Of a stretch of 64,000 nt of DNA, positions 14,418-61,857 are shown piece after piece (position 1 is the stretch's first letter; every line of letters starts with the position of its first letter). The DNA is from Bacillota bacterium (lineage in GTDB: Bacteria > Bacillota > Clostridia > Acetivibrionales > DUMC01): assembly GCA_013314855.1 (NCBI GenBank), contig JABUEW010000002.1:13511-77510 (forward strand), given 5' to 3'. Under the pieces are notes generated by a model. That model did not search any database. It saw nothing but the letters and a program-made list of their open reading frames with translations, and was not told the origin of the DNA. The translations under genes were made by a program, and so were the position numbers.

Positions 14418-14609
14418 ACAAATCCCCCTTTTAATTTAATTTTTTTGATTTGTTTTACTGCTTGGGCTTTATACAAATGCTCTACTCAACAAATGTGAAG
14501 ATGCTCTGTTATCGTTTTTGAGTATCGCCTTTTATACAAAGTCCCAGTAAAAGAGTTTTATAATAAACCCCATTAAGGGTTATTATCTGATTTCTTACCT
14601 ATTTAGGCT

Positions 14610-15464: not shown

Positions 15465-15493
15465 CAGGTTAATATTCTACATAAGCCATCTCA

Positions 15494-46217: not shown

Positions 46218-47225
46218 TTACGCCATCGTCTCCAGCATTTTCAGTGTCACACTGTACTTCAGCTCTTTACCCTCCACATAACGTATAAATTCTTCTACAA
46301 TATAGCATCCCATCCTTTCAACTTCTCTGCCCATGCTGCCGGCTATGTGAGATGTGAGAATTACATTCTCCATTTTTCGAAGTTCACTGTCAAGTGCTGG
46401 AGGCTCAGGATCAGTCACGTCAAGAACAGCCGTCCTTGTGGGTACTGCTTTCAATGCCTCGATTAAATCCTTCTCTACTACCTGGGCGCCCCGTCCGGTA
46501 TTTATAAATGTGGCGTTCGGCAGCATGTTGCTGAAATGCTCCCTATTGAGCATTCCTACTGTGGCTGGAAGGTTTGCTATGTGGTTTGATATTGTCTGGC
46601 ATTGGGAGAAAATCTCAACCAGAGTGCATTTCCTCACTCCCAGTTTCTCTGCCCTTTCATCGGAAAGAAACGGATCGTATACCAGTACTTCGATGTTAAA
46701 ATGCCTTAAAAGCTCTATGACCTTTGTTCCTATCATACCTGCCCCTAGTATTCCCACTTTGGCAAAATAATTGCCAGTGAACATCTCCGAATACTTCTTT
46801 GCTGAATGAAAATCCTTTTTTGTTTTGAGGGCATTCTGGAAAAAGCCCTTGTTTGCCAATAGGATCTGCGCCAGCGTATACTCGGCAACCGGTACTGCAT
46901 TTGCTACCCATGCGCTTACTATGGTTATACCTTTACTAAGGAACGGGCGGGCAAAGTGTTGGACGCTACCTGCTGCATAGAACACTGCCTTCAGCTCGGG
47001 AAGGTATTGCTCAATTTCTTCTTCCGATAGCACAGGCATACCCCATGTCGAAAATACAACCTCCACGTCCTTGAGGTACTCTTTGTGATCCCCCAGGTTT
47101 TCCTTCGCAACCAACTCAGGGTATATTACTGCATATTTACTTATCTTACTTATACTTTCCCGGGTGTAGACCCTGTCTATCAATTCCCTGTTACGCCCTT
47201 GCGACATGAACACTGCTTTTACCAT
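46218..47225 (-). CDS. D-isomer-specific 2-hydroxyacid dehydrogenase family, NAD-binding
   Basis: GILGAGMIGTKV (GxGxxG), FINTGRG and LTSHIAG catalytic-His region. Confidence 0.75.
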   Translation of the reverse strand: MVKAVFMSQGRNRELIDRVYTRESISKISKYAVIYPELVAKENLGDHKEYLKDVEVVFSTWGMPVLSEEEIEQYLPELKAVFYAAGSVQHFARPFLSKGITIVSAWVANAVPVAEYTLAQILLANKGFFQNALKTKKDFHSAKKYSEMFTGNYFAKVGILGAGMIGTKVIELLRHFNIEVLVYDPFLSDERAEKLGVRKCTLVEIFSQCQTISNHIANLPATVGMLNREHFSNMLPNATFINTGRGAQVVEKDLIEALKAVPTRTAVLDVTDPEPPALDSELRKMENVILTSHIAGSMGREVERMGCYIVEEFIRYVEGKELKYSVTLKMLETMA

Positions 47226-47496
47226 AGGATTCCTCCTATCTCAATAAATTATCCGGTTACACTTTTTCTGATATTGTTAATATAATGATAACATAACAAA
47301 TCAAAGTATGTAAACTTTAGGCTATTAACTTTTATTACCATATTTTATTTTATATAATTTTAAAAGAAGGTTGCCTTCTCTAAATAAGTTGAATAACACT
47401 ATCAAAGTTGTTATAATTTTTATAGGTAAATATTAAATAATTTCGATTATCTGGTAAGCAAACAATGTCATTTTAAGAAAAGGAGATGTGTTGCAA

Positions 47497-47871
47497 ATGG
47501 AAATGAATGTTGGTGCAAAAGTGTGGTTTGTGCCCGATTGTTATTACCCTTCAACAAGCACTGGAAATCTTAAGAGTCATGAAGCTATATGCGTGCTGAA
47601 CCCCGGAAAAAAGGATGCCAATATCGAAATAACCTTATACTTTGAAGACAGGGATTGTATGCGGGGTTTTAAAGCTGTTTGCAAGGCTGAAAGAACAAAT
47701 CATATCAGGATGGATAAGTTAAAGAACGAAAATGGTGAAGGTGTACCCATGGATGTACCTTACGCAATGATGGTAATGAGTGATGTGGAAATAATTGCCC
47801 AGTATAGCAGAATGGATACCTCCCAGGCAGAGATGGCTTTAATGACAACAATGGCTTTCCCGTTCAAGTAA
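47497..47871 (+). CDS. ASRT-family protein (sensory rhodopsin transducer fold, PF07100-like)
   Basis: The pattern SHEAICVLNPGKKDANIEITLYFED...AERTNHIRMDKL...YSRMDTSQAEMALMTTMAF parallels the Anabaena ASRT / Thermotoga TM1070 family (recalled from memory). AGGAG 11 nt upstream. Confidence 0.6.
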   Translation: MEMNVGAKVWFVPDCYYPSTSTGNLKSHEAICVLNPGKKDANIEITLYFEDRDCMRGFKAVCKAERTNHIRMDKLKNENGEGVPMDVPYAMMVMSDVEIIAQYSRMDTSQAEMALMTTMAFPFK

Positions 47872-47892
47872 GAAGGCGAATTAATAGCAACA

Positions 47893-47940
47893 GGGGGACG
47901 CATTAAGCTCAAATAAAAAATGTGCGTCCCTATTTCTTTA
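47893..47940 (+). terminator. Terminator after the ASRT-family gene
   Basis: GGGACGCA (47895-47902) / TGCGTCCC (47923-47930), followed by TATTTCTTT. Confidence 0.45.
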
Positions 47941-48053
47941 AACTTCTCTACTTTTTTTGCAAATGCAATGGTCTTTCTTACTTCGGGACCAAAGGTATCC
48001 GTTCCTTCCTGGATATTCCATGGCCCTACTGAAAATTTAAACTGAGATTTCAT
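47928..48053 (-). pseudogene. N-terminal stub (about 42 codons) of a xylose-isomerase-like TIM-barrel gene
   Basis: MKSQFKFSVGPWNIQEGTDTFGPEVRKTIAFAKKVEKFKEIG resembles XylA/sugar-isomerase N-termini. The frame then runs into the ASRT terminator and gene with no further similarity. Confidence 0.5.
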
Positions 48054-48263
48054 ATATAACCCGTACCTACTATTCCTGCTTTTATCTTCCTCATTCGGAT
48101 TCCCCTTTAAATGAATGCGAGGCTTTAGGTTATAACCTCATGTTTTCATCAGAGTATTGATTGATTAGCCTTTATCGGAATAGCCCACGGCAGGCAGAAG
48201 AAACAGTCTGTACCTTGGGACAATGGTATCGTTTGCCTGGATGCAGAGATATCAATAAAGCTT

Positions 48264-49103
48264 TTATAAAAGCGGCATTTCAGTCATGCGGAGGTTTGTG
48301 CAGCCGTAAGGGATAAGCCGGAGTTCTTCTTCTTCATTGGAAACCCGATCCATTCCAGGGTAGGGGGCAGCACAACCGTTTTTCTTGTCCCAATCTACCT
48401 TTTTACCACGAACATGGGCTACTACCGGGGCTCCCCCGGGAGAAAAGGGACAGTCTCCTATAGGAAGTTCCTCAAACCGGATGCCGGATTCTGGATTATT
48501 TTTATCAAGACACAGGCCATAATTCCACGGTGTAGCAGGATATATTTCGTAATCACAGTGAGGAGGCTCGCGGCCTGGGATATCCCGGTTAATTCTTACC
48601 CAGCGTTCCGCAATGGGAAGCGAGTATACCAGAGGACCCCGGGTTACGGCATAGAGATTATTGGGCCGGCTTACAATACGGGGATGCATTGGGAAGTGAA
48701 GAGTAAAGGAGGTTTCCCCACTCCATACTTGCTCAAGACGGTAATAATCTCCATTCTTCAAGGAAATTGAGCGCCCCCCGATTTTTAGACAGGCACCTTC
48801 AGCCCATCCAGGCACTCTCAGCCATAGTGCAAATCCAGTCTCACGGTCAACCGTTACCTTAAAATCCAGGGATTCGCGGAAAGGGTACCCGGTATCTAGG
48901 GTTATAGAAACCTTTGCATTGTTTACTGAAGTTTTTACTGTACAGGGTGCGTAGATTGGAACAGCCAGTCCGTCCTGGCTTTGCATAAAAATAGACATGG
49001 CAAGCTTTGGCCAGGGTTGGCTGAGGTTTGCCGTGCAGCATCCATAATTTGGTTCAAGCCCGAATATGTTTGATTCTCCTCCGTTGGTGCGGTAAAAGCA
49101 CAT
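48264..49103 (-). pseudogene. C-terminal part of a GH127/DUF1680-type (beta-L-arabinofuranosidase-like) gene
   Basis: The frame opens mid-domain at ...LEPNYGCCTANLSQPWPKL (CC motif of the GH127 Cys/Zn site), followed by beta-sandwich-like C-terminal domains. The N-terminal catalytic part is missing. Confidence 0.55.
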
Positions 49104-49330
49104 TTCTTAAATTTTGCAGCCATTTAATCAGTCCCACCGTTGGTACTATAACCTTCAAAGACAAAAGTATTACCGAATACAGCCCTACGGAATTGAGGAA
49201 AAGGATAGTATATTGTTTCCAAACACCTTATCTTTTTGGTGATACAGTAATAGAAAACATCAACTTCCCTTTTTCTATAAGAAATGTAAAACCTGATACC
49301 GAAAAGATAAATGAACTGTTTTCAATGTTT
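49085..49330 (+). pseudogene. ABC-transporter ATPase fragment starting inside Walker A
   Basis: ...CGKSTFLKFCSHLISPTVGTITFKDKSITEYSPTELRKRIVYCFQTPYLFGDTVIENINFPF... The N-terminus, signature and Walker B are absent. It abuts the GH127 fragment on the opposite strand. Confidence 0.55.
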
Positions 49331-49450
49331 CATAGGTATGTTGTTTTCTGTAAAGTAGAGGATTATTTTATCAAAGTTGTTTACATCCCTTGAACTACTT
49401 ACCTTTACAATATTCTCATCAATCTCTACACTTGAAACACCATCTATTTT
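49330..49450 (-). pseudogene. Possible C-terminal fragment of an ABC-2-type ATPase
   Basis: The minus-strand frame reads KIDGVSSVEIDENIVKVSSSRDVNNFDKIILYFTENNIP, a pattern typical of the C-terminal domain of drug-type ABC ATPases. Confidence 0.35.
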
Positions 49451-49587
49451 GCAGTTTTACCGGTTAATACAAGCAATGTTTTACCAGTCTATATGAATGA
49501 TGATAATGAAATTTTCATTTCCAGGGGCTTTATCTGGGAATTTCCTTATAGCGGAGGCATTGATTTGATAAAATGAGTTGGGAGATC

Positions 49588-49648
49588 CAAAAAATTAAGA
49601 TAAAAGCTTTAATGTCAAATTATATCAATGCCACCACCCATTAAAGCT
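49588..49648 (-). terminator. Terminator after the GH20 gene
   Basis: AGCTTTAATG (49605-49614) / CATTAAAGCT (49639-49648). On the minus strand it is followed by TTTATCTTAATTTTTT. Confidence 0.45.
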
Positions 49649-49673
49649 CCCTTTATATTTCTACATTATATCT

Positions 49674-51575
49674 CTACATGAATGAATAGAAAGTCGTTAT
49701 AGATATCCGGCTGGGAGATGGCATCCTGTTATAAACATTACACTGAACCAAGCCTTCCACCCCATTAAAGTAAAGCCTTTCATGCTCCAGTTCCTCTATC
49801 CGGTCTATCTTACCCTGCAGATAGTCGTTAATTCTCGCTATGGCAGTATCAAGCCTCATAAGCAGTGCACCATACCTGAGATCAAGTATCTCCCATCCAG
49901 ATGGTTTGTTGATCATCATCCATAAACTTCTGTGATATTCTCTTAAGTTCTTCACCCTTTTTATCAGTTCAGGTAGCTCTTTTTGGGCTAACTCCTCAAG
50001 TACCACGTTATTTTTATTTCTGTAGGCATTTGTTATCCTTATCCCCATTTCAGCCTTTAGTTCCAATACTAGACTTACTCTTCTCAAATACTCAAAAACA
50101 AAATTTAAATCCCCATTCCTTCCAGCATACACGCTTAGCTTTTTCGCTAAATCATTGTAATGACTGCTTAAGGGTAACCCCTCAATATTCTTGTCAAATA
50201 GGCCAAGGAGAACATCCTGCCACATAAGGTATTTACTCGTGTTCCTGTTATTAGTGTTGCCATTTTGGGTTCCAGGTACCTCGTCAATGTATTTAACGCT
50301 TATGAAGTCATCATAGTCTGTCCCCGTACAGAATTTGAACCTTTTCTTCAATTTCTCTTCATCCAGCACTTTGGAATACCCATGTTCGGCAAAAAGCTGT
50401 AACCCTACCATGTTGGTATATATATTGCACTCGGTAGTATCATCGCCCCATATTGTTGCAAATACCTCTTTTATTCCCTGCTTCTTGCAAGCGTTGAGTG
50501 CAGCATTTGTGTTAGCATAGGTTATACCATAATTAAGTGTGAAACCTGTCCAGCTCCATAGACCTCCTGCGAATATTGGATCAGACCCAAACTCCCTGTG
50601 CCTCTTTATCCACTCGTTGTAAAAATCCTCATCCGAGTGGTAGTAATCCCAGTAAACAAGCTGAACCCCTTTTGGTACCATGTCAATCACTTCTTTTGGT
50701 ATAACAGAGTTTATGTCATAATAGTCCCCTGTTCTGGATGCTGCTCTGAAATACATGTCGCTCCATATCATCGGCTTCAACCCGTATTTTTCTGTTATCT
50801 TAAGCACATACGTAAGATGTTCGTTCATTATGTCAAATTTATTGCGATAGCCGTTTAACTTGAGGTAGTTTCCCTGTCCAAGTTTCCATGCTTCATCCAT
50901 GCCTATATGGATCCTTTTTGTCCTAAAAGGTTCGCATGCTGCAGCTATCATTTTTTCAATAAACTCGTAAGTCTTTTCATAACCTACCAAGAGTGTATCG
51001 TCATCTTCTTTAATATCGTTGTAACATCCCCACTTTAAAACATCTATCAAATGTGCAAGTGTCTGTATGCACGGTATTACCTCAATTCCGAAAGCATAAG
51101 CATAGTCGTCTATCTCTTTCATCTCTTCATAGCTGTATTTTGATCTCATATATCCAAAATATGGTTGATCCTTTATCTCATAACTGTCTTCAGAGTACAG
51201 CATAAGCATATTCAGGCCCATGGCTGCCATATATCTGATTATCTTTTTTACATTATCAATATTTATTACGGCATTACCCTGTGATACATCGAACATAACA
51301 CCATTCATAGTAAACTGAGGCTCTTCCTGTATCTCAAAAGTATCTGCTTCCTGGAAGGCTTCTATCAACAGTCCAAGAGCTCTGAAAAAATAAATTCTTT
51401 CTTTATACTTAATAACTGCAGACTTTCCCTTTTTTACAACACTTATAAGATTATTCTGAACCTTTTCTACATTAATCTCAAGACCTTCCGGGCATACTTC
51501 AAAACCAAACATGCCGGAAAATATTTCAATCCCTTTATTAAGACCAGAAATATCTCCTTTAAATGAAAGCTTCAT
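49674..51575 (-). CDS. GH20 beta-N-acetylhexosaminidase (cytoplasmic)
   Basis: RIHIGMDEAWKLG (GH20 H-x-G-x-D-E catalytic pair) and a TIM-barrel core. No signal peptide. Confidence 0.75.
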   Translation of the reverse strand: MKLSFKGDISGLNKGIEIFSGMFGFEVCPEGLEINVEKVQNNLISVVKKGKSAVIKYKERIYFFRALGLLIEAFQEADTFEIQEEPQFTMNGVMFDVSQGNAVINIDNVKKIIRYMAAMGLNMLMLYSEDSYEIKDQPYFGYMRSKYSYEEMKEIDDYAYAFGIEVIPCIQTLAHLIDVLKWGCYNDIKEDDDTLLVGYEKTYEFIEKMIAAACEPFRTKRIHIGMDEAWKLGQGNYLKLNGYRNKFDIMNEHLTYVLKITEKYGLKPMIWSDMYFRAASRTGDYYDINSVIPKEVIDMVPKGVQLVYWDYYHSDEDFYNEWIKRHREFGSDPIFAGGLWSWTGFTLNYGITYANTNAALNACKKQGIKEVFATIWGDDTTECNIYTNMVGLQLFAEHGYSKVLDEEKLKKRFKFCTGTDYDDFISVKYIDEVPGTQNGNTNNRNTSKYLMWQDVLLGLFDKNIEGLPLSSHYNDLAKKLSVYAGRNGDLNFVFEYLRRVSLVLELKAEMGIRITNAYRNKNNVVLEELAQKELPELIKRVKNLREYHRSLWMMINKPSGWEILDLRYGALLMRLDTAIARINDYLQGKIDRIEELEHERLYFNGVEGLVQCNVYNRMPSPSRISITTFYSFM

Positions 51576-51660
51576 TATAATCCCCCTAACTATTAATCCT
51601 GTATTAAAATTAATATTAGCATTAAAATAATAACCAAAGTACAGCAGCTGAACAATTGAA

Positions 51661-52020
51661 CTAATATTTCCCGAATTCCCGCCCAGCCTCTACCATTGCA
51701 ATCATATTTTCTTCCGGAGTCATCCTGGGAATCATTTCTCCACTGTTGAATATATATCCACCATTCCTGCCACCAGCTTCAATAATTCTTTTCGCCTCTT
51801 CCTTAACTTTTTCCGGAGTGCCATTCATCAGTACATTAATAGGGTCAATATTCCCTATCAAACATACTTTGTCTCCAACAGCCTGCTTTACGTCAGCTAT
51901 ATCAACGCCTGGTCCCACACTTAATGCACTGATACCTGTTTGAGCTTGGACTTTAATATGTTCAATTTTGTGCTCACTTGCATGGTAAAAGCTGTAGCCT
52001 CTACACCCTTATAAGCCATA
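51661..52020 (-). pseudogene. Uroporphyrinogen-decarboxylase (URO-D/MtaA-like) family remnant
   Basis: The C-terminal third reads ...FYHASEHKIEHIKVQAQTGISALSVGPGVDIADVKQAVGDKVCLIGNIDP...GGYIFNSGEMIP... An intact GGAGG + ATG (52018-52020) lies just upstream but in another frame. Confidence 0.55.
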
Positions 52021-52688
52021 ATAACCCCTCCAAACCTAAATTTAGTACAACCATTATTAAACCAGGTACACCAAAATCCTAAAATTATATGTCATGGCCT
52101 TTCTTGTATGCACAGGTCTACAACTTGGAAACCCTGGGCGGATTATTCATCAAATCCTCAGGCATTATTTGAGCAGTTTTTTTCTCATCACCCGGTTTTC
52201 GCTTTCTTGTATACGGATATAACTCACATTTCTTATATTAGAACTTTAGTTAAAACTTTAGCTTCCATAGAGCTTTTAAGACTACCTGCTTATTTAACCT
52301 TTCTAGTTCGTGCTATAAACCAACGCTTATTAATTACTTAAATTTAATATTTTATTTGTTGCATAAAATAATAAGATAATTATATTATATTTGTTATACT
52401 ATTATCTGTCAATGTGATTTTTTTATAGTTATGGTTGTGCAGCAATTTAGATTAACCCAAACTGCAGATGTGCTTTAGAAAATGCTGCAAATCATCAGCT
52501 TATAGACAATCATAGGCTTGTAGCCAGGTTTTATTGAGGAATTTGAGCTGCCACTCTAATTCTTATTTCATCAAGGTCATCACCTGATGCGTTAACTATT
52601 ATTAACATCCTCTGGTAATTATATAGTCCATGGAAAGGGGAGATATTGCATAAGTAAAACAAAAGTCTTTTAGTTGAATAATTCTTCT

Positions 52689-53564
52689 TTACTCCTTTAC
52701 ACTGCCGCTTAAAATGCCCGCTATAAAATATTTCTGCAAGCATATAAATAGAACGTATATTATAAAGCTGGACACAACTGTTGCAGCCATGAGCTGGTTC
52801 CATATAATCTCTGCTTCATCCCTGAACATTGTAAGAGCTATTTGAACAGTTTTCATGCTGTCAGAGTTGGTCATTATAAGTGGCCATGTATATTCATTCC
52901 ATGTTCCTGTAAATTTTAGTATACCCAGCGATGCCAGGATTGGTTTAGAAAGAGGCAGATATATTCTAACAAACGTCATAAACCTGCTGCACCCATCAAT
53001 CCTGGCCGAATTATCAATATCTTGAGGAAAAGTTATATAAAACTGCCGGCAAAGAAAAACACCGAAAGAGCCGGCAATAAACGGTATTATAAGCCCGGCG
53101 TATGTGTTTATTAATCCCCTTCCGCCTATACCTAATATATTGTTCCCGCCTGCAAGGGGAAATCTTTTCATCATAATAAAAAGCGGGACCATTGTAACCT
53201 GGGGTGGAATCATCATACCTATGAGCAGCAGCACAAATAATAAATGTCTGCCCTTAAATTTGATGCGGGCAAAAACATATCCTGTCATGGAATTGATGAA
53301 AAGGCTTATAATAACTACAATTATAGTAATATATATACTGTTAAAGAAGTATCTGCCCCAAGAACCATTTGTCATTGCTTTAATATAGTTAATGAATTGG
53401 GGTTTTTGGGGAAATAACAACAACTCCGGCGAATATATCTCTTTCATTGTCTGAAGAGATGCCGAAATCATAATAAAAAACGGTATTCCTATGATAATGG
53501 TAAACAGCAATACCACAAGCCAGGTTAACAATTTATATATGGTGTCTTTCATTTCTGTTGTCAA
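52689..53564 (-). CDS. Carbohydrate ABC transporter permease (MalG-like)
   Basis: EAA-like DNSARIDGCSRFMTFVRIYLP. Six TM segments. Confidence 0.85.
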   Translation of the reverse strand: MTTEMKDTIYKLLTWLVVLLFTIIIGIPFFIMISASLQTMKEIYSPELLLFPQKPQFINYIKAMTNGSWGRYFFNSIYITIIVVIISLFINSMTGYVFARIKFKGRHLLFVLLLIGMMIPPQVTMVPLFIMMKRFPLAGGNNILGIGGRGLINTYAGLIIPFIAGSFGVFLCRQFYITFPQDIDNSARIDGCSRFMTFVRIYLPLSKPILASLGILKFTGTWNEYTWPLIMTNSDSMKTVQIALTMFRDEAEIIWNQLMAATVVSSFIIYVLFICLQKYFIAGILSGSVKE

Positions 53565-54448
53565 TCCTCCTGCTCTTTTCCTTCTCCAATGCGCATATTT
53601 AAAAGGGTAATTCCAAAAATAATTACCAAAAGTACTATGGACATTGCCGATGCATACCCCATTTTATACTCGCTAAAAGCGCGCATATATATTTGATGAA
53701 CAATTGTCGTAGTGCTGTTGATTGGCCCCCCGCCAGTCATAATCCGTACCTGTTCAAAGGTTTTAAAGGATTCGATACAAGTTGTAACAAATATAAAAAA
53801 GGAAATTGGTGATACCATGGGTACGGTAATTTTGAATAGCATTGCAAATTGCGAAGCACCGTCAACTTTGCCTGCTTCATATAAGCTTGCAGGAATATTT
53901 GCAAGCCCTGCCAGGTAAATTATCATCACATATCCTATATTTTTCCAGATATTCATAATAATAAGGCATGGTAATGCCAGGTGTTCATCAAATAACCACT
54001 TTAAAGGTTGAAATCCTAAAGCTATAAGTATTTTGTTAAATATTCCCGTTGTAGGTTCGTACATATAAAGCCATACCATGGACACTGCAACCATGGAGGT
54101 CACATAAGGAAATATATAAAGCGCTCTTACCATATAAAATACTTTTGACATCCCGTTAACTGCAACTGCGGCAATAAAGCCAAAAACCATGAGAGGCACT
54201 ACACTAAATGCTGCGTAAATTAAAGTATTCCATATGGAACGGAGAAAGTCCTTATCACTGAATAATTTAATATAGTTATTCAAGCCAACAAAATCCCTTG
54301 TTTTTCCAAGGTCGTAGTTTGTAAAACTATTTATAAAATTAGTAACTATAGGCACCAATACAAAAAGGATAAAAAAGGCAAAAAAGGGTGTTATCATGGC
54401 ATATGCTTCTATATCATCGCTTCTGATTTTGATCTTTTTTTTGGTCAT
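53561..54448 (-). CDS. Carbohydrate ABC transporter permease (MalF-like)
   Basis: YEAGKVDGASQFAMLFKITVPM EAA loop. The start is probably MTKKKIKI (54448) rather than the ORF-track 54517. Confidence 0.8.
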   Translation of the reverse strand: MTKKKIKIRSDDIEAYAMITPFFAFFILFVLVPIVTNFINSFTNYDLGKTRDFVGLNNYIKLFSDKDFLRSIWNTLIYAAFSVVPLMVFGFIAAVAVNGMSKVFYMVRALYIFPYVTSMVAVSMVWLYMYEPTTGIFNKILIALGFQPLKWLFDEHLALPCLIIMNIWKNIGYVMIIYLAGLANIPASLYEAGKVDGASQFAMLFKITVPMVSPISFFIFVTTCIESFKTFEQVRIMTGGGPINSTTTIVHQIYMRAFSEYKMGYASAMSIVLLVIIFGITLLNMRIGEGKEQED

Positions 54449-54546
54449 ATGTGCATACCTGCACTTTAGTCCGGTGTAATTCCATGTTATGCCAAGTTTT
54501 CTTGATACACCCTTCATTGCCCTCTCCTTTTACTGTTTCATTTCTT

Positions 54547-54601
54547 TATATCTTATCATCTCTGCTTATATCTTATCATCTCTTTATGTCTTATCATTTT
54601 T
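54547..54601. repeat. Three tandem copies of an 18-20-nt unit at the SBP/permease junction
   Basis: tatatcttatcatctct (54547), tatatcttatcatctct (54567) and tatgtcttatcattttt (54585). The third copy overlaps the SBP stop codon (54594). Confidence 0.75.
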
Positions 54602-55865
54602 TTATATCTTCCAGTAATTTGTTTTGTGCTTCATTTAAAGCCTCTTCAATTGATACCTTTGAATAAAGCACTTTTTGTACCATTTCATTCCTCAAGGTCT
54701 GGAACCTGGGAGACCAGGTAGTCCTGGGCATGCCTATACCAACCTCAACACATTCGGCCCTTACCGAATTGTATGGATCCAGCTTTGCGAATTCGTCAAC
54801 AAGGGATTTCCTCGTAACAGGTATATTTAGCCTTTTACTGCGTTCAAGCACCTGTTCCTTCGTTAAAGCCATTTCAATGAATTTCCATGCCTCATCTCTA
54901 TTTTTACATCCGGAGCCCATAAAGAGCATGTTACACCCACAGAATGATGCCTTCTTTTTGTTATACGGCGGTACAGCGATAGCCACTTTCTCTTTCAAAT
55001 CGGCATCTTCCAGCATAGGCCGCAAAGCAACGTTATTTATCAGTGTCATGGCAGCATTTCCTTTAATAAAAGGATTTACTTCATTGCTGTTGTACGGGAT
55101 ATTTACTTCGTCAATAAAGCTCTTCAAAAACTCGAAAGCTTCTGCTTTTTCAGGTGTATTAATTATAGGCATGCCATCGTCATCAACATATTTACCGCCG
55201 TTGCCGAAAACAAAAACATCGAATTCAACAAAATTTCCTGCTGCCATTGGAAATGCAAAACCTGCCCGAGTTATCCTGTCACCTTCCTTTACAGTCAGAA
55301 GCCTGGCATAATCTCTTAGCTCATCCCATGTTCTTGGTGGTTTTTCGGGGTCAATGCCGGCTTCTTCAAACATATCCTTGCGATATGCAAAGACAAACGG
55401 TGTGGTAGAATATGCAAGACCATATATTTCGCCCTTATAGGTACCATTGGCAAGTACACTTTCCATTATATCGTCCTTGCCTTCCCATTTTGAATAGTAA
55501 TCCGTAATAGGCTGATAATGACCTGCTTCAACCCTGTTTGCTACAGAAATAATACCATGCCCGATAATATCAGGACCTGCACCTCCTGCAAAAAGTGTGT
55601 TAAGTTTGGTTTCCATGGGTTCACCTATCGCAGCATCATCATATTGGATTTTGATATTTGGGTTCTTTAATTCGAATTCTTTGATAAGAGATTTCCAATA
55701 ATCCGCTTCAGGTGTATCGTTACCTATACGTAAAAAGGTTAATGTTACTATATCTTTATTATAATTATTATCATTTTTGCTTCCACAAGAGGAAAAAAGT
55801 ATTAAATTTGCTAAAACCATCATAATTACTAATGATACTGTTATTATTCTCTTTATTTTCTTCAT
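54594..55865 (-). CDS. CUT1-type sugar ABC transporter substrate-binding lipoprotein
   Basis: Signal peptide with lipobox LFSSCGS. Family-1 SBP size. Confidence 0.85.
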   Translation of the reverse strand: MKKIKRIITVSLVIMMVLANLILFSSCGSKNDNNYNKDIVTLTFLRIGNDTPEADYWKSLIKEFELKNPNIKIQYDDAAIGEPMETKLNTLFAGGAGPDIIGHGIISVANRVEAGHYQPITDYYSKWEGKDDIMESVLANGTYKGEIYGLAYSTTPFVFAYRKDMFEEAGIDPEKPPRTWDELRDYARLLTVKEGDRITRAGFAFPMAAGNFVEFDVFVFGNGGKYVDDDGMPIINTPEKAEAFEFLKSFIDEVNIPYNSNEVNPFIKGNAAMTLINNVALRPMLEDADLKEKVAIAVPPYNKKKASFCGCNMLFMGSGCKNRDEAWKFIEMALTKEQVLERSKRLNIPVTRKSLVDEFAKLDPYNSVRAECVEVGIGMPRTTWSPRFQTLRNEMVQKVLYSKVSIEEALNEAQNKLLEDIKK

Positions 55866-55949
55866 TTTTTGTCCTCCTTCTCTTCTCTAAACGGATTTTC
55901 GGGGATAGTCCGGTAAAAACCATCCTTACTTACTCATCAATTTTGCTTA

Positions 55950-57047
55950 TTACCACACAACAGACGGATGGCCGTGGATGTTAGGCAACCTGTTGGGCCG
56001 TACTAGTGCGCCGCCTTCTTCATAAGAAGTTATTGCAGCAAATGTATATTCCAGTGTTGCCAAAGCATCCCTGCCTGATGCCCTTATAAATTCCTTTGGC
56101 ACCCCGTTCGTAATATCTTCAAGGAATGCATGGAGCCTTGTGGGGAAGGTTGAGTTAAAATCGGTAATTCCCGTATTGAAAACTTCAGGAGCCGGCGCTT
56201 CCTTCTCCCCAGGCTTTGGCGATGCCCAGAAGGTAAGTTTTTCAACACAGTTTTCAATACAAAAAGTGCCTTTTGTACCTGCCATTTCAAAGCTCCACCA
56301 GCCTCCCAGGCCAAACATCGCATCACCGCGCTGGGACAGTAAATATCCTACACTTCCGTTTTCAAAGCGGACATGTATGCTGTTGATAGAAAGCATCAGG
56401 TCATCTGCGCTTTTCCTTACACCGGGTTTATTCATAAATGCCTGTACATGCGTAATATCTCCGCAAAAATAGCGCATAACACTAAAAGGATGGGCAAGAA
56501 ACGCCTTTACATGGGAATACGGGCGCTGCCACCTTGGGCTTCCTACTCCTCCATAAGTTGCCTCCCCGCCGTTAAAGCCCATTTTATGAAGGCAATATAC
56601 CGGCTCACCAACTTTTCCCTCTTTTATATATTGTTTCGCTTTATCTGCCGGCTGGGTGAAATAGTGGTTTAAATTACATCCAAGGTAAACATCCTTTTCT
56701 GCCGCAAAGCGTACCATTTCCCTTGCTTCACTAATATCATTGGATATGGGTTTTTCTACCAGGACATGCTTTCCTGCATCAATAGCTTCCATAACAGGAA
56801 CATAGTGCCAGCTGCCATTTTCATAACCGCTGGTGGTAACATCAATAATATCTAACTCAGGATGGGCTTTCAGCATTTCCTTCAAGCTGTAGTATGCCTT
56901 AACCCCATGCCTTTCAGCAGCAGCATCTGCCTTTTCTTTTATAATATCGCATACTGCCGTAAGCTCTGCGAGAGGGTCTTTGTTATAACACTCAGCATGG
57001 AGATTTCCTATGCCGCCCATTCCTACTATACCTATTTTTAGAGCCAT
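55950..57047 (-). CDS. Gfo/Idh/MocA-family oxidoreductase (365 aa)
   Basis: IGIVGMGGIGNLHA Rossmann motif and VLVEKP motif. Paralogous to 58077-59087. Confidence 0.85.
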   Translation of the reverse strand: MALKIGIVGMGGIGNLHAECYNKDPLAELTAVCDIIKEKADAAAERHGVKAYYSLKEMLKAHPELDIIDVTTSGYENGSWHYVPVMEAIDAGKHVLVEKPISNDISEAREMVRFAAEKDVYLGCNLNHYFTQPADKAKQYIKEGKVGEPVYCLHKMGFNGGEATYGGVGSPRWQRPYSHVKAFLAHPFSVMRYFCGDITHVQAFMNKPGVRKSADDLMLSINSIHVRFENGSVGYLLSQRGDAMFGLGGWWSFEMAGTKGTFCIENCVEKLTFWASPKPGEKEAPAPEVFNTGITDFNSTFPTRLHAFLEDITNGVPKEFIRASGRDALATLEYTFAAITSYEEGGALVRPNRLPNIHGHPSVVW

Positions 57048-57129
57048 ATAAAATTCCCACCTTTCAAAATATAGTTAAAAATATATATATTGACTTCGTA
57101 AATAAATTTTTAATTCTAGGAAATAAATT

Positions 57130-57996
57130 TTAATTTTCTTCATTTTTACGAAATACTGTAGGTGAAACACCCACAACTTGCTTAAATTGCCGTGAAAAAT
57201 TGCTTATATCACCAAATCCTGCACTCCTTGCAATCTCCGCAACAGGCATATTTGTTGTTTTAAGTTTTTCCATGGCCTTTGCAATTCTGTAATTACGCAA
57301 GTATTCAACAGGAGATAAACCCACTGCATTTTTAAATTGACGCGATATATAGTCAGGTGATAATTTGACCATGCTTGCCATTTCTTTCATTAAGAAATCC
57401 CGCTGGTAGTTCTCCTCCATAAACTTTAAAGCGTTATAAATATGAGGCAAGTACACTTTGTTATTTACATTTGTACCGGAATAATGGTTGCTGTATAGTC
57501 TTGAGTACAATACCAAAAAACTTACCAAAAGGCTTTTCATATTAAGTTCCCATCCAATACCGCGGTTAACCTGTTCCCACTTCATTTTTTCAAGGCAAAG
57601 TAAAACTTCACGCCTTTCAGCAAAATCCAAATGAAGTTTTTCCCATTTAGACTGCCGTTCGCCCAGTATCTGGCTCATACCGGGTAGTTTAACGATTTCT
57701 GAAGAAAATCCGTCTAAAGCCTCCATATAAAACAGGCAATTGTATAAATAGGTATGATGGGCGCTTATATATGCATGTACTTCACCGGGCCTTATGGTAA
57801 ATAAATCGCCGGATGTAAGGATGGTTGTTTCATCATTGCATGAATGCATGGAAAAACCTTTGTCAATATAAACTATTTCAAAGAAGGAATGGCTGTGCAA
57901 CCATACCTTGCCATGATGTTCCGTATCCATAATTGCAATAGGAAAGTCTCTATCTTCAAAATCCAGGATGTTTTCTTCTTTTCCCAAAACAGCCAT
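57130..57996 (-). CDS. AraC-family regulator (cupin sensor + 2x HTH)
   Basis: N-terminal cupin-like HSHSFFEIVYI..G. C-terminal LSPDYISRQFK...GVSPTVFR HTH_18 pattern. Embedded between the two oxidoreductase genes. Confidence 0.85.
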   Translation of the reverse strand: MAVLGKEENILDFEDRDFPIAIMDTEHHGKVWLHSHSFFEIVYIDKGFSMHSCNDETTILTSGDLFTIRPGEVHAYISAHHTYLYNCLFYMEALDGFSSEIVKLPGMSQILGERQSKWEKLHLDFAERREVLLCLEKMKWEQVNRGIGWELNMKSLLVSFLVLYSRLYSNHYSGTNVNNKVYLPHIYNALKFMEENYQRDFLMKEMASMVKLSPDYISRQFKNAVGLSPVEYLRNYRIAKAMEKLKTTNMPVAEIARSAGFGDISNFSRQFKQVVGVSPTVFRKNEEN

Positions 57997-58076
57997 TATC
58001 CTTCACTTGCTCCTTTTTCTTCTCTTTTCTCTTTTCTCTTTTTCTTTAACGTTTGTTAATAACTTAATAGTTTCCA

Positions 58077-59087
58077 CTATCTCTTAACAGTTTCTACCTT
58101 AATGGGTAGCCCTGTTTTAATAGATTCTATAGCTGCATGAATTACACGGCTTGCCTCAAGGCCATGTTCACCGGAGCCATCAATATCTTCAGGCCTATCG
58201 CCCCTTGCCACTTGGTTTACAAAGCAGGTAATCCTATCGCGAAATGTATCATAGAAGTCACGGAATCCTCCAAATACAGGATTGGTGTAAACCTGCTTTA
58301 CAAGGCTGTCAGCAGGATAAAGGACAGCCTCCCTCCACATATCCTCAAGTACTGCACGCCCTTTTGTACCTGCAACCTCGCAACGTTCCATCGGGTGTCC
58401 CCGCTTTATGTCATATGAGCTTGTCAAATGGCCAACAGCTCCATTCTTAAATTTAACGTTTATAGAAGCGGTTGACCAGATATCCCTGCCCGGTGCCTTG
58501 GTTGCAAAGCAGTGGACGGTATCAACATCACCGCCAAAATAGCGCATGATATCCACACTATGTGGGTTAAGGGCTTTGAGGTGATAATATTCGGAGTCAA
58601 AAGAGGGATCAAACCTTCCTATCCATAATGCCATATTTATAAACAGCAGGTGCCCCAAATGCCCTTCATCCTGCCACTGTTTTACAATGCGCGCTGCAGG
58701 AGTAAACCGATGGTTTAAGTTGATGGCAAAGCACCTGTTTAACCTTTTTGCCGTATCCACCATTATTTGTGCCTTTTCAAGGTCATTGCAAATAGGCTTT
58801 TCACATAATACGTGGCAACCTGCTTCAAGAGCCTGTATTGTGGGCAGATAATGATCACTTGAATATTCGAATCCTCCTGTAGTGACACTGCAGATATCCG
58901 GTTTTAATTCATTAAGCATTTTTTCCGCATCCGGATACCAGGGAACACCAAACTTTTTGCCGGCAGCTTCCGCCCTCTCCCGGATGATATCACAGACACC
59001 TACGAGTTCAACGTCTTTACACTCTGTATAAACACTTGCGTGGGTGTTTCCTATGTTACCCATTCCGATAACACATACTCTTAGCAT
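58077..59087 (-). CDS. Gfo/Idh/MocA-family oxidoreductase (336 aa)
   Basis: VCVIGMGNIGNTHA Rossmann motif and VLCEKP motif. Confidence 0.85.
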   Translation of the reverse strand: MLRVCVIGMGNIGNTHASVYTECKDVELVGVCDIIRERAEAAGKKFGVPWYPDAEKMLNELKPDICSVTTGGFEYSSDHYLPTIQALEAGCHVLCEKPICNDLEKAQIMVDTAKRLNRCFAINLNHRFTPAARIVKQWQDEGHLGHLLFINMALWIGRFDPSFDSEYYHLKALNPHSVDIMRYFGGDVDTVHCFATKAPGRDIWSTASINVKFKNGAVGHLTSSYDIKRGHPMERCEVAGTKGRAVLEDMWREAVLYPADSLVKQVYTNPVFGGFRDFYDTFRDRITCFVNQVARGDRPEDIDGSGEHGLEASRVIHAAIESIKTGLPIKVETVKR

Positions 59088-59134
59088 TTATAGTCCTTCT
59101 TTCATTTTTATTGACCTTTATTTATATTAACATT

Positions 59135-59177
59135 GATATTCACTCGGATATTCACTCGCAATTATTCATAATTATTC
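59135..59177. repeat. Two adjacent direct-repeat pairs between the sulfatase-like and oxidoreductase genes
   Basis: gatattcactcg x2 (59135-59146 and 59147-59158), then aattattc x2 (59160-59167 and 59170-59177). Confidence 0.75.
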
Positions 59178-59195
59178 CCGCTTCCGTCACAAAAA

Positions 59196-60590
59196 CTAAT
59201 CCTTTTTCTGGGCAAGCATAGCCTGAAGTTTTTTTGCAGCCTCAGGGTCGCCTATGTGAAGAGCATCATATGCCTGCTGTGATGTCTTAAAAGGCCCGCA
59301 CCCTTTTCCATGCCAATCAAGATTGTTATACATGGGATTTTCCCTTCCGGTTTCCTTTTCACGTTTTGCTATATGTTGAAACATACGTTCCTCAAGCATC
59401 TTTACAACTCCAGGTTCTTTTTCAGCAACATTATTATTTTCTTCCGGGTCCTTAATTAAATTATAAAGCTCTACTTCAGGCTTGAAGTGGAAATCCGGCT
59501 CCAAGGCACGGATAAGTTTCCATTCGGGAGTTCTCCAACCATGCTTTCTCATCCATGTACATTCGGTGATATAGAATTCCGGTTCCGGCTCCCTATACTC
59601 ACCCCTTGTTAAAGGCATAAGACTTCTTCCATCGAAACGAATACCGGTATCAATTCCCAGGATCTCCAAAATTGTAGGCATAATATCCTTAAGCTGGCAA
59701 TAATCCGTATACCTCTTCCCTTCAGGAAGTTTTCCCGGGAAACGCAGCACCAAGGGGACAGTCAACGTACAATCATAAAGTCCGTGATGATCAAAGTAAC
59801 AGTCATGGTCATAGAGAGTTTCCCCATGGTCGGATGTAATAACAACCAGGGTTTCGCCTTCAATGCCCAAAGCTTCCAGTTTGGTTAGGATATTCTGTAT
59901 GCAGGCATCCATATAAGCAATTGCACCATCGTACTGGGCAATTATATAATCCTTATCGGTGCATCCCGGTGGGAACCAGGTCAAGAAATAGTCCCTGAAA
60001 GGCTTAAACTGATATACAGGTTCAAGGGATTTATTATTTGGGTCAAACTCATTTCCGCCATAGAATATTCTGTGAAATGGTTCTGGAGGAAGATATGGAG
60101 AATGAGGGTCCATGTGGCGCATAAAAAGGAAGAACGGTTTGTCTTCCTTTGCAAGGCGTTCCAATTCGGGAATAGCTACCTTGTTGAGATTTTCAGCTTT
60201 TGGTGAGCGTCCCTTTTCCCAGGAACCCCAGGCCTCATATTCAATATACTTGCCAAAGCCACGGGATGCAGGATTACCGCCAAATCCAATACATGTGGAA
60301 TTGTACCCGTTTTCATTAAGTACCTCTGCCAGAGTTTTTATTCCATCTGCAATTCCGCCTTTATGTCTTAAAGCTACAATATTTGTTCCGAAGCAATCCA
60401 TACCGGTAAGCATAGAGCCATAACCTGATGTAGTAGGTACACTAGGGCTAAAACAGTGCTCAAACACTATACCTCCCTGGGCATATTTATCTATATGGGG
60501 TGTAGTAAGGTGCTCATAGCCGTAAAGGCTCATATGGTCAGACCTTAGGCTGTCAATTCCGAATAACACTAAATTAGGTTTTTTAGCCAT
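59196..60590 (-). CDS. Alkaline-phosphatase-superfamily 'sulfatase-like' enzyme lacking the C/S-x-P-x-R formylglycine motif
   Basis: Sulfatase-fold motifs PNLVLFGIDSLRSDH, HMDPHSPY and ITSDHGE. At the nucleophile site the sequence is FSPSVPTTSGYGSMLTG instead of C/S-x-P-S-R-xxx-LTG. No signal peptide. Start at MAKKPN (60590) after AAAGGAG. Confidence 0.75.
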   Translation of the reverse strand: MAKKPNLVLFGIDSLRSDHMSLYGYEHLTTPHIDKYAQGGIVFEHCFSPSVPTTSGYGSMLTGMDCFGTNIVALRHKGGIADGIKTLAEVLNENGYNSTCIGFGGNPASRGFGKYIEYEAWGSWEKGRSPKAENLNKVAIPELERLAKEDKPFFLFMRHMDPHSPYLPPEPFHRIFYGGNEFDPNNKSLEPVYQFKPFRDYFLTWFPPGCTDKDYIIAQYDGAIAYMDACIQNILTKLEALGIEGETLVVITSDHGETLYDHDCYFDHHGLYDCTLTVPLVLRFPGKLPEGKRYTDYCQLKDIMPTILEILGIDTGIRFDGRSLMPLTRGEYREPEPEFYITECTWMRKHGWRTPEWKLIRALEPDFHFKPEVELYNLIKDPEENNNVAEKEPGVVKMLEERMFQHIAKREKETGRENPMYNNLDWHGKGCGPFKTSQQAYDALHIGDPEAAKKLQAMLAQKKD

Positions 60591-60609
60591 ACTTATATCT
60601 CCTTTCATT

Positions 60610-61407
60610 TTATCTTGCTCCAAGTATTTTAAGACATGCATTCATATACCCATAACTTTCAGCCGCAATAATGGATGCAGCAATCATGTCCTGTCCAGGG
60701 CCGATAACTTCCAGGCAAACAGGCCCATCATATCCGGCATCCACCATTGCTTTAAAATAACCAAACAGGTTTATATCACCTCTGCCGCATGCTTGCAATG
60801 CAGGTTCACCCGGACTGGGACCCCGGCCTTTACAATCACGGATATGTATATGCTTTACCCTGCTTATTACTTGGGGCAGTGCTTCTTCCGGAAACTCTCC
60901 CGCACGGTAAATGTGACTTGGGTCCATGTCAATACCAAAAGCAGGACTTTTTATATAACCCATAGCTTTAAGCGTTGTAGGAGTATTATATATTGCTGCA
61001 CCTACATGGGCTTTTACGCAAAGAGTAACACCGAATTCTTCAGCTTTTTCAGACATTTTTGCAATGGTGTCAAGGCTTGCTTTAAGACTCTCTTCATCGT
61101 CAGCTTTTCCTCCCGGCCCGATGTTAATAACCGGGATACCTATTTCCTTGGCTGCTTCAAATGCCTTCATAAGCCTGTCTTCGTCAAGGGAGGCTACCTC
61201 GGATGACAACATCATGAGTCCGAATTCTTCCATAACTGCCTTAATATCTTCCTTTTGTGCTTTCCAATTATCAAGGTTTAAATGCTCGCACATACCTTTA
61301 ATAGCAGAAATCTCCAGACCATCATAACCTGCTGCTTTGATCGCTTTTGCCGCCTCTTTAAGAGAATACGCTTTGAAAAGTACAGTATTTACTCCAAGTT
61401 TTATCAT
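60610..61407 (-). CDS. Xylose-isomerase-like TIM-barrel protein (sugar phosphate isomerase/epimerase family)
   Basis: AP_endonuc_2-type pattern: MIKLGVNTVLF, GYDGLEIS, VKHIHIRD and VCLEV. Confidence 0.8.
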   Translation of the reverse strand: MIKLGVNTVLFKAYSLKEAAKAIKAAGYDGLEISAIKGMCEHLNLDNWKAQKEDIKAVMEEFGLMMLSSEVASLDEDRLMKAFEAAKEIGIPVINIGPGGKADDEESLKASLDTIAKMSEKAEEFGVTLCVKAHVGAAIYNTPTTLKAMGYIKSPAFGIDMDPSHIYRAGEFPEEALPQVISRVKHIHIRDCKGRGPSPGEPALQACGRGDINLFGYFKAMVDAGYDGPVCLEVIGPGQDMIAASIIAAESYGYMNACLKILGAR

Positions 61408-61857
61408 CGTTCTCACCCTTTTGGGCATTCACTCCTTTCAAATTAAATTATTTATAATCCTTTCTTTATCCTTCCTTTTTTCCCTGAAACATAATGTCTT
61501 TTATTGAAATCCAACAACTGAGAGTATTTTATTAAAGATATTTAAAGAAAGGACAAAATTCAAATTTTTAATTAATATTATGCATCCATTAATAATGCCA
61601 TCTTAATTATACAGCGAATAAAATTACTCTTCAATTAAATTACTTGATTTGTTCTAATATCGTTACGGAATATGCATAATCCATTATGTTTTTGCAAAAT
61701 AATATTGAGAACTTATTATGGACAAAATACAAAGAAAATAGATAGTGATGTTGTCGAGTCTGACCATCCGGTAGTCCGGGAATCGGCAAATTACATTAAG
61801 TAACAAAGCGTTAAAGCTATAAAGTAATATAGCGTAATTAAATTTAGCTTATATGAA

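Follow-up and report, generated by a model that had tools for sequence, protein, structure and literature searches.

A conserved bacterial gene module linking a threonine-type sulfatase-fold protein to a TIM barrel and Gfo/Idh/MocA oxidoreductases

A gene cluster in a contig of a Bacillota bacterium (Clostridia; GenBank assembly GCA_013314855.1, contig JABUEW010000002.1, positions 13,511 to 77,510) raises the question of what pathway would combine two Gfo/Idh/MocA oxidoreductases, a xylose-isomerase-like TIM barrel and a sulfatase-fold protein that lacks the formylglycine motif with a CUT1-type ABC transporter and an AraC-family regulator. The whole stretch analyzed, 64,000 nucleotides (nt) in length, is referred to here as the window. 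A previous reading of this DNA, made from its letters alone (the sequence-only reading), had proposed uptake of an oligosaccharide or glycoside followed by cleavage or de-esterification through a keto-sugar intermediate, with an inositol-type pathway as an alternative. We found that the window contains a reduced copy of a module that is widespread among bacteria, highly conserved and uncharacterized, and whose core consists of the TIM barrel, the sulfatase-fold protein (designated APL) and one Gfo/Idh/MocA oxidoreductase (Gfo1), in this order, and a second Gfo enzyme.

Gene cluster in the window

Eight intact open reading frames (ORFs) run in one direction on the minus strand from 61407 to 52689. 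The ORF listing and Pfam matches bore out the eight co-directional genes of the sequence-only reading in both position and family. The genes, in the order of transcription, and a promoter-like site (window coordinates) are as follows:

60610..61407 (ORF extends to 61428), minus strand: TIM barrel protein, xylose-isomerase-like, 265 amino acids (PF01261, E = 1e-25)
59196..60590 (ORF extends to 60641), minus strand: APL, S1-sulfatase-fold protein of the alkaline phosphatase superfamily (PF00884 and PF16347, SGSH_C)
58077..59087, minus strand: Gfo1, Gfo/Idh/MocA NAD(P) oxidoreductase (PF01408, PF22725, PF02894)
57130..57996, minus strand: AraC-family regulator with a cupin sensor domain (PF12833, PF00165, PF02311)
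55950..57047, minus strand: Gfo2, second Gfo/Idh/MocA oxidoreductase (Pfam assignment)
54594..55865, minus strand: CUT1 solute-binding lipoprotein, SBP_bac_1 (PF01547, PF13416)
53561..54517, minus strand: ABC permease of the MalF/UgpA type, BPD_transp_1 (PF00528; UgpA model, 154 bits, below the cut-off)
52689..53564, minus strand: ABC permease of the MalG/UgpE type, BPD_transp_1, with a TTG start (PF00528; 4-nt overlap with the preceding permease gene)
61606..61634, minus strand: candidate promoter-like site TTGAAG-17-TATAAT, approximately 200 nt upstream of the TIM barrel start (consensus scan only)

Intergenic distances within the cluster range from -4 to 108 nt, and the candidate promoter-like site falls in the 0.5 kb that separate the citrate synthase gene from the cluster. 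Translation of the TIM barrel probably starts at 61407, the position preferred in the sequence-only reading, and not at 61428, because a database protein of 265 amino acids (P0121, labeled as from a 'Firmicutes bacterium' metagenome-assembled genome) that is 100% identical to it begins there; the start of APL is likely M18, at 60590. The regulator contains the N-terminal cupin/AraC_binding domain (PF02311) and the two C-terminal HTH_AraC motifs (PF12833, PF00165) typical of the AraC/XylS family. The transporter consists of an SBP_bac_1 protein (PF01547) with a lipoprotein-type N-terminus and two MalF/MalG-type permeases (two PF00528 matches), as in CUT1 importers. No ATPase gene for this importer was present within the cluster; the ATPases of CUT1 importers are often encoded elsewhere. 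The remainder of the window is ordinary chromosome, with genes for SbcCD, AddAB and citrate synthase.

Conservation of the module across bacterial phyla

We scanned one genome per species for the module and fetched 80 loci. Loci are given below as L numbers, and counts refer to 52 non-redundant ones (within L001-L084) in which APL is flanked on either side by 3 kb or more. At least 586 stretches matching the module were confirmed. More than 5000 APL homologs were detected at E below 1e-20, the best 120 of which were all at least 69% identical and came from Bacillota, Planctomycetota, Lentisphaerota, Kiritimatiellota and Armatimonadota. The closest related locus among the matches listed belonged to a Clostridiaceae metagenome-assembled genome, with an APL identity of 89%. 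The TIM barrel gene adjoined APL in 50 of the 52 loci and a Gfo1-type gene was likewise found in 50, whereas the full quartet, defined as TIM barrel, APL, Gfo1 and a second Gfo enzyme, was present in 43. These quartets were distributed among Bacillota, Planctomycetota, Verrucomicrobiota, Chloroflexota, Armatimonadota and Spirochaetota. The neighborhood comparison that the sequence-only reading had called for thus showed the quartet to be conserved in six phyla.

Mapping by tblastn and protein clustering showed that the order TIM-APL-Gfo1 is fixed across at least six phyla, with Gfo1 following either APL or APL and a sulfotransferase. At least one further Gfo gene accompanies these three and belongs to one of three ortholog groups (Gfo2, Gfo3 and a third group, c7). 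Sequence identities across phyla were 65–89% for APL and 53–90% for the orthologs of TIM barrel, Gfo1 and Gfo2, with Gfo2 forming an ortholog group of its own (62–90%). Taken together, the module proteins are approximately 65–75% identical between phyla, and each core protein falls at approximately 60–90%. The exact eight-gene order of the window was repeated in L005, L006, L085, L086 and L088; L040 has it as well, plus one additional sulfatase gene. The AraC gene occupied the identical position in all of these loci. Such an arrangement is far beyond chance. The associated transporters varied (CUT1, Opp-like SBP_bac_5 or sodium:solute symporter), as did the regulators (AraC or DeoR), which suggests a portable catabolic cassette.

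A full-text literature search found no description of the module, and none was found in two curated hidden Markov model (HMM) libraries; in a cultured Paenibacillus, the NCBI annotation pipeline gives the module genes no more than generic names. The module is unusually conserved across distant phyla, yet without a curated family. It is directly testable because cultured carriers exist. One cultured strain, Paenibacillus cellulositrophicus KACC 16577, contains the full extended module (L089) on its 897-kb plasmid (NZ_CP045296.1, 836456-848524). Besides a canonical sulfatase, this locus encodes a CUT1 transporter, Gfo, TIM barrel, APL (WP_152404553), Gfo, cysC, a second Thr-type paralog of APL (designated APL2) and AraC. 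It is preceded directly by a two-component system and followed by a recombinase gene. Mahella australiensis DSM 15567 (CP002360, approximately 1.265–1.274 Mb) is another cultured carrier.

APL has a sulfatase fold with threonine at the formylglycine position

Alignment of APL with PDB 4uph and with co-located Cys-type sulfatases placed the motif SVPTTSGYGSMLTG on the CxPxR signature of sulfatases. This position reads T-T-S-G-Y in APL, in which Thr replaces the formylglycine residue, and the absence of the formylglycine motif noted in the sequence-only reading was thereby confirmed. Thr was found at this position in all 85 APL copies examined. The Pro of CxPxR is also replaced. Three cationic residues have been lost, namely the Arg of this motif and two Lys residues, one belonging to the GKxxH signature and the other C-terminal. 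Compared with the co-located canonical sulfatases (alignment A8), the corresponding substitutions are GK to GF and DKH to DHH. Retained residues include the first metal-binding Asp (Asp13), the His of PHxP (His163) and the D-H pair (Asp254-His255), and both Asp13 and Asp254-His255 are invariant in alignment A8. APL thus combines the fold, metal-binding Asp and D-H pair of S1 sulfatases with the absence of both C/S-x-P-x-R and the cationic sulfate-binding Lys, and this remodeled active site rules out the formylglycine mechanism for APL.

No signal peptide or hydrophobic N-terminus was present in the APL sequence. The protein is predicted to be cytoplasmic because it begins directly with the catalytic domain (MAKKPNLVLFGIDS). 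Its scores were below every NCBIfam cut-off, the best match being arylsulfatase PRK13759 (161 bits versus a cut-off of 481). A structure was predicted from 14 close homologs and was used for fold assignment only, since the confidence of the AlphaFold model is low in the loops of the active site (pLDDT 62). The top 50 Foldseek matches of this low-confidence model were all S1 sulfatases or phosphonate monoester hydrolases, and the predicted fold is clearly of the S1 sulfatase type.

In both sequence and structure, APL matches S1 sulfatases and phosphonate monoester hydrolases (4uph, 3ed4, 2vqr) best. It shares with them the two-domain architecture (PF00884 and SGSH_C), the Asp, the PHxP His and the D-H pair. 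It differs from S1 sulfatases in having Thr in place of the Cys or Ser that is converted to formylglycine, in the replacement of Pro, Arg and both Lys residues, in its predicted cytoplasmic location and in its position beside a TIM barrel and a Gfo oxidoreductase. A Thr near a metal site with a D-H pair is also found in EptA/MCR phosphoethanolamine transferases, LtaS and NPP, and these families gave weak local NCBIfam and Pfam matches to APL, covering approximately 50 residues around the D-H pair. In contrast to EptA/MCR and LtaS, in which a multi-pass membrane domain at the N-terminus precedes a periplasmic catalytic domain, APL has no membrane domain, and its fold and best matches are those of S1 sulfatases.

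In two Brocadiaceae loci (L044:8555-11395 and L071:8535-11392), APL genes were duplicated in tandem. The IPTT motif was present in both copies, and the upstream copy was 57–62% identical to the window APL.

Nearest relatives of the TIM barrel and Gfo oxidoreductases

The best PDB profile match of the TIM barrel was inosose isomerase IolI (1i60, E = 7e-14), followed by IolE-like proteins. Its AlphaFold2 model was of high quality (pLDDT 96), and the structural neighbors identified with Foldseek were generic (14–20% identity), including ketose 3-epimerases, UlaE, dehydroshikimate dehydratase, IolE and, at rank 39, the 2-hydroxy-3-keto-glucal hydratase AtHYD. Gfo1 gave its best full-length PDB profile matches with inositol dehydrogenases (3ezy and 3cea). 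Gfo2, which is 36% identical to Gfo1, had DgpA as its top match, restricted to the NAD-binding N-terminal domain. IolG was the first or second NCBIfam match for all Gfo proteins. However, all scores were below the curated cut-offs: Gfo1 and Gfo2 reached 116.9 and 99.4 bits, respectively, with the IolG model (TIGR04380, cut-off 355), 57.6 and 71.2 bits with LgdA (cut-off 650), 34.4 and 39.6 bits with BT2158 (cut-off 750) and 45.9 and 47.2 bits with BT2159 (cut-off 650), and the TIM barrel reached 30.3 bits with the IolE model (TIGR04379, cut-off 290). In C-glycoside cleavage, a DgpA-like oxidoreductase is paired with a heteromeric TIM-barrel lyase made of DgpB and DgpC. No structure labeled DgpB or DgpC was found among the profile matches or the top 50 structural neighbors of the TIM barrel, and the window contains a single TIM barrel. 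No protein named glycosidase or sulfoquinovosidase was found among the PDB matches of Gfo1 and Gfo2.

The sequence-only reading had derived its scheme from the oxidation, elimination and reduction logic of DgpA-DgpBC, LgdA-LgdB-LgdC and BT2156-BT2160. The component classes do match (Gfo dehydrogenases, one or more TIM barrels and often an ABC importer), but these systems lack an alkaline-phosphatase-superfamily enzyme, a sulfotransferase and genes for 3'-phosphoadenosine 5'-phosphosulfate (PAPS), and the module reaches none of their curated models. The LgdA, BT2158 and BT2159 scores do not support this logic, nor does the closest kin of the enzymes, which for the TIM barrel is IolI by profile and for Gfo1, over its full length, inositol dehydrogenases. 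The inositol-type alternative fared better in one respect: these same best matches favor it and make it at least as good as the main hypothesis of that reading, whereas the oxidoreductases and TIM barrel fall outside the IolG and IolE equivalogs. Besides the low scores, the module differs from the IolG/IolI/IolE set in that no other iol genes accompany it, and inositol catabolism has no counterpart to the sulfur-gene context described below. Rhizopine MocA and MocC are related inositol-type enzymes. By sequence, the module enzymes appear to lie outside the named cassettes, if anything leaning to cyclitol-type enzymes.

Sulfur-related and other accessory genes

In 38 of the 52 loci, at least one gene for a sulfotransferase, adenosine 5'-phosphosulfate (APS) kinase, ATP sulfurylase, Cys-type sulfatase or TauE lay no more than approximately 9 kb from APL. 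The proposal in the sequence-only reading that the substrate is substituted, and probably sulfated, gains support from this context. One recurrent arrangement involved a PAPS-type sulfotransferase (PF13469) of approximately 240 amino acids, whose gene was inserted between those of APL and Gfo1 in 21 of the 52 loci and in approximately 33 loci in all. This insertion was seen in Chloroflexota, Verrucomicrobiota, Planctomycetota, Armatimonadota and one Clostridiaceae locus, and the PAPS-binding motifs of the sulfotransferase (GRGHSGTR and RDPRD) are intact. In a Caldilineaceae contig (DAOUCA010000183.1, L068:9017-11386), a single 789-amino-acid ORF encodes a sulfotransferase-APL fusion, in which a sulfotransferase (residues 6-269) is followed by a low-complexity linker and a full APL domain (residues 329-785); no TIM barrel or Gfo genes were found within 10 kb of it. 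This link to PAPS and sulfotransferases was not foreseen in the sequence-only reading and is a poor fit to a simple de-esterification scheme.

In Paenibacillus, including the P. cellulositrophicus megaplasmid, APS kinase is translationally coupled to APL2. Two Bacillus-group genomes contain ATP sulfurylase, an SLC13-type transporter and APS kinase after the module, without PAPS reductase. Signal-less canonical CxPxR sulfatases of the Cys type occurred in 16 of the 52 loci, and in L030, L031, L040 and L057, which have the window-like arrangement, such a sulfatase immediately follows Gfo2. A TauE/SafE exporter was found in two Chloroflexota loci. On the other hand, all Clostridia-type, Mahella and Spirochaete loci have the APL, TIM barrel and Gfo genes without a sulfotransferase or APS kinase.

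Two pairs of accessory genes were never found in the same locus (0 of 52 in each case). One pair is the sulfotransferase and APL2, and the other is the PhyH dioxygenase, present in aerobes, and URO-D, present in anaerobes. Each non-co-occurring pair may supply one step by different chemistry. In certain anaerobes (L001, L004, L047, L077 and L088), an intact URO-D gene is found with the module. A second TIM barrel was encoded beside the module in 13 loci, and further recurrent accessories were genes for the ASRT small protein, lactonase-like genes and, within the Clostridia type, those for M20 peptidases. A pooled Pfam scan of 102 unclustered neighbor proteins revealed no further strongly recurrent family.

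Glycosidases and the size of the substrate

The statement in the sequence-only reading that the operon has no glycoside hydrolase holds inside the eight genes; beyond them, a hexosaminidase gene of the GH20C type lies on the same strand 1.1 kb downstream. This region contains the following features:

49674-51575, minus strand: GH20C-type hexosaminidase (PF18088 and PF00728), 1.1 kb downstream of the cluster
51661..51918, minus strand: URO-D relic, C-terminal 85 amino acids only (PF01208, E = 1e-19, profile positions 269-345 of 346)

The DNA between the cluster and the GH20 gene consists of pseudogene debris, including the URO-D relic, and contains a perfect sigma-70-like site (52412-52384). 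The GH20 gene was absent from all of the more than 80 related loci, and close relatives have an M20 peptidase gene in its place. We considered the GH20C gene as a member of the cluster and rejected it on the basis of this absence and of the intervening debris; by comparison with relatives, it is not part of the same unit. Glycosidase genes were present at some loci, namely GH4 in L027, L028 and L040, GH2 in L040 and GH20 in the window.

In Mahella, the Opp-type binding protein is closest to 5ipw and SPH1118, of which SPH1118 binds acidic pectin oligosaccharides, in keeping with an anionic substrate. Of solved structures, 5CI5 (119 bits) comes closest to the binding protein of the window cluster, and the ligand in its crystal is alpha-D-tagatose (PMC8938411, Table 1). 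The uptake of a glycoside or oligosaccharide assumed in the sequence-only reading is therefore not supported, and the lack of a glycosidase needs no special explanation, because this closest solved binding protein binds a monosaccharide.

Possible function of the module

Judging from these comparisons, we tentatively suggest that the module processes, in the cytoplasm and through keto intermediates, an imported anionic ester of a monosaccharide or cyclitol, with sulfate as the probable ester group, a reading that we consider possible, though short of probable. The AraC-family protein would sense the substrate and switch the operon on, and the CUT1 ABC system would import a monosaccharide-sized, probably anionic sugar or cyclitol carrying a sulfate or possibly a phosphate ester. 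One Gfo enzyme would then oxidize a ring hydroxyl to a ketone, and the IolI-like TIM barrel would either move or epimerize the carbonyl via an enediol or catalyze an elimination. APL might remove or transfer the ester group with a metal-activated Thr and a covalent intermediate, as in phosphoryl-transfer members of the superfamily, and Gfo1 would reduce the product to an ordinary metabolite. Because other lineages add sulfatases, the Thr-type paralog, sulfotransferase and PAPS-synthesis genes, the chemistry of the module appears to revolve around a sulfuryl group, and this comparative context makes sulfate the likelier ester. Phosphate or a nucleotide of the PAPS type, including its desulfated form, adenosine 3',5'-bisphosphate (PAP), is a serious alternative because of the Thr nucleophile and the lost cationic sulfate-binding residues.

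Several observations weigh against this proposal. To our knowledge, all precedents for a Thr nucleophile in the superfamily involve phosphoryl and not sulfuryl transfer, so the ester could be phosphate, and we know of no characterized ortholog of the module enzymes. None of the four enzymes (TIM barrel, APL, Gfo1 and Gfo2) reached a curated NCBIfam cut-off, the TIM fold does not separate isomerases, epimerases, dehydratases and lyases, and the poor APL model at the active site leaves metal count and geometry unreadable. The window copy itself is a minimal form of the module, without a sulfatase, sulfotransferase or APS kinase. Moreover, a sulfotransferase that consumes PAPS is an unnatural component for a route of catabolic de-esterification, and both the sulfotransferase-APL fusion and the mutual exclusion of sulfotransferase and APL2 are poorly explained by any simple catabolic scheme.

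In the scheme of the sequence-only reading, a glycoside is imported, one Gfo enzyme converts it to a 3-keto-glycoside, the TIM barrel catalyzes beta-elimination, reduction by the second Gfo enzyme follows, and APL takes off a sulfate or phosphate substituent. Such a pathway would agree with the lack of a glycosidase conserved with the module, with DgpA as the best PDB profile match of Gfo2, with the second TIM barrel in 13 loci, which recalls lyase-plus-hydratase pairs, and with the presence of AtHYD among the structural neighbors of the TIM barrel. NAD-dependent glycosidases with a Gfo-like fold, a class marked by tightly bound catalytic NAD and including GH109, also exist, such as GH188 (PMC10755693). 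However, the DgpA match spans only the NAD-binding domain, LgdA, BT2158 and BT2159 scored 34–71 bits against cut-offs of 650–750, in sequence the TIM barrel resembles IolI more than any eliminase, a monosaccharide is the ligand of the nearest solved binding protein, and glycosidases do occur at L027, L028 and L040 and in the window. We consider this scheme unlikely. A cyclitol module of the inositol type, which we regard as doubtful though deserving of attention, would have Gfo enzymes acting on inositols or their derivatives (O-methyl-inositols, inosamines or inositol phosphates), the TIM barrel as an inosose isomerase and APL as a Thr-type inositol-phosphate phosphatase, with URO-D in anaerobes or PhyH in aerobes stripping a methyl group. 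The rank of IolG among the matches of all Gfo proteins, the full-length matches of Gfo1 to inositol dehydrogenases and the IolI and IolE-like matches of the TIM barrel all point in this direction, a Thr nucleophile suits phosphoryl transfer, and URO-D and PhyH are never found together and are split by oxygen lifestyle, as alternative demethylases would be. The rhizopine moc genes, which encode a Gfo-type MocA, a TIM-type MocC and a demethylating oxygenase, offer a loose precedent. On the other side, the scores are far below the equivalog level of IolG, IolE and IolI (30–117 bits versus cut-offs of 290–355 for IolG and IolE), iolB, iolC, iolD and iolJ were not seen, and the sulfotransferase fusion, APS kinase, ATP sulfurylase, Cys-type sulfatases and TauE are left unexplained.

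Another candidate is a PAPS-dependent sulfation module: the Gfo enzymes and TIM barrel would tailor an imported sugar or cyclitol, the sulfotransferase would sulfate it, and APL would assist sulfation, for instance by hydrolyzing PAP (an inhibitory by-product), PAPS or APS via a nucleotidyl- or phospho-Thr. The position of the sulfotransferase between APL and Gfo1 with its PAPS-binding motifs kept, the L068 fusion with neither TIM barrel nor Gfo genes nearby, the coupling of APS kinase to the Thr-type paralog in Paenibacillus and the ATP sulfurylase, SLC13-type transporter and APS kinase genes without PAPS reductase in two Bacillus-group genomes argue for it. Thr-type enzymes of the NPP family within the superfamily act on nucleotide phosphates. 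Yet APL is always present, whereas the sulfotransferase and APS kinase are accessory and are absent from the window and from all Clostridia-type, Mahella and Spirochaete loci, and AraC or DeoR control, ABC importers and cytoplasmic sulfatases look catabolic; we find a sulfation module improbable. As for the window, its copy could be a decaying remnant without current function, given the relics in its flank (fragments of URO-D, GH127 and an ABC ATPase) and its lack of the accessory sulfur genes found elsewhere. This is very hard to reconcile with the eight ORFs, all of which are full length relative to their orthologs and free of internal stops, and with the same minimal eight-gene set found intact in L005, L006, L085, L086 and L088, and we give it hardly any credence.

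Returning to the processing of an esterified monosaccharide or cyclitol, a more specific and rather questionable extension is that APL and APL2 represent formylglycine-independent, Thr-nucleophile enzymes of the S1 fold for sulfuryl chemistry on intermediates of the keto-sugar or cyclitol type (hydrolysis, elimination, or transfer with PAP/PAPS as acceptor or donor), obligately associated with the TIM barrel and Gfo enzymes and, in many phyla, with a PAPS-type sulfotransferase. Two further ideas were set aside. A sulfoquinovose pathway was prompted by TauE, the lactonase-like gene and PhyH, but nothing specific supports sulfoquinovose; none of the known sulfoquinovose genes was recognized, although no search was aimed at the GH31 sulfoquinovosidase. 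Energy-conserving transfer of sulfate from the substrate to PAP, with APS kinase and ATP sulfurylase running in reverse, was dropped as thermodynamically implausible, which such a transfer is for ordinary sugar sulfates.

Sulfated or otherwise esterified sugars are a large pool of carbon and sulfur in soils, sediments, guts and digesters, and the known route of sulfate removal requires formylglycine sulfatases and their maturation enzymes. What is new here is a Thr-type family with a sulfatase fold and a link to PAPS and sulfate, added to a kind of oxidoreductase/TIM barrel cassette that is known from keto-sugars or cyclitols. If APL handles an ester of a keto-sugar or cyclitol, it would represent a new catalytic solution in the alkaline phosphatase superfamily, a further branch of oxidation-driven sugar pathways and a helpful genomic marker of a substrate that has so far escaped notice. 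If the ester group is indeed sulfuryl, the module would provide a new way of handling sugar sulfate esters in the cytoplasm without formylglycine maturation. The link to PAPS synthesis and sulfotransferases is puzzling in its own right.

Flanking relics and other genes of the window

The flank of the cluster (47700-49700 and 51576-52689) is decaying and contains several gene relics. The URO-D relic shares 37% identity with the URO-D encoded after Gfo1 in L004. On the far side of the GH20 gene lies a gene for a small protein that recurs beside the module elsewhere:

47488..47871, plus strand: ASRT-family small protein (PF07100, E = 4e-46)

This protein is 73% identical to the ASRT protein beside the same cluster in L088, and ASRT genes were also found in Bacillus-group and Planctomycetota loci. 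Other features of this region include the GH127-like relic (C-terminal 279 amino acids, 48264-49103, minus strand), the ABC ATPase-like fragment (49028-49393, plus strand) and an unassigned ORF of 97 amino acids (47760-48053, minus strand), which shares part of its DNA with the ASRT gene. Adjacent to ASRT, on the minus strand, are genes for a D-2-hydroxyacid dehydrogenase (46218-47225) and a PfkB sugar kinase (45126-46064); these enzymes might process the product of the module.

Elsewhere in the window, a second CUT1 ABC system (13077-16441) is unrelated to that of the cluster, with a binding protein 26% identical and permeases 31–38% identical to their counterparts. A protein of 695 amino acids (5951-8038) has DUF6259 as its only Pfam match, and an ORF of 603 amino acids (32465-34276) combines homocysteine S-methyltransferase and methylenetetrahydrofolate reductase domains in one protein.

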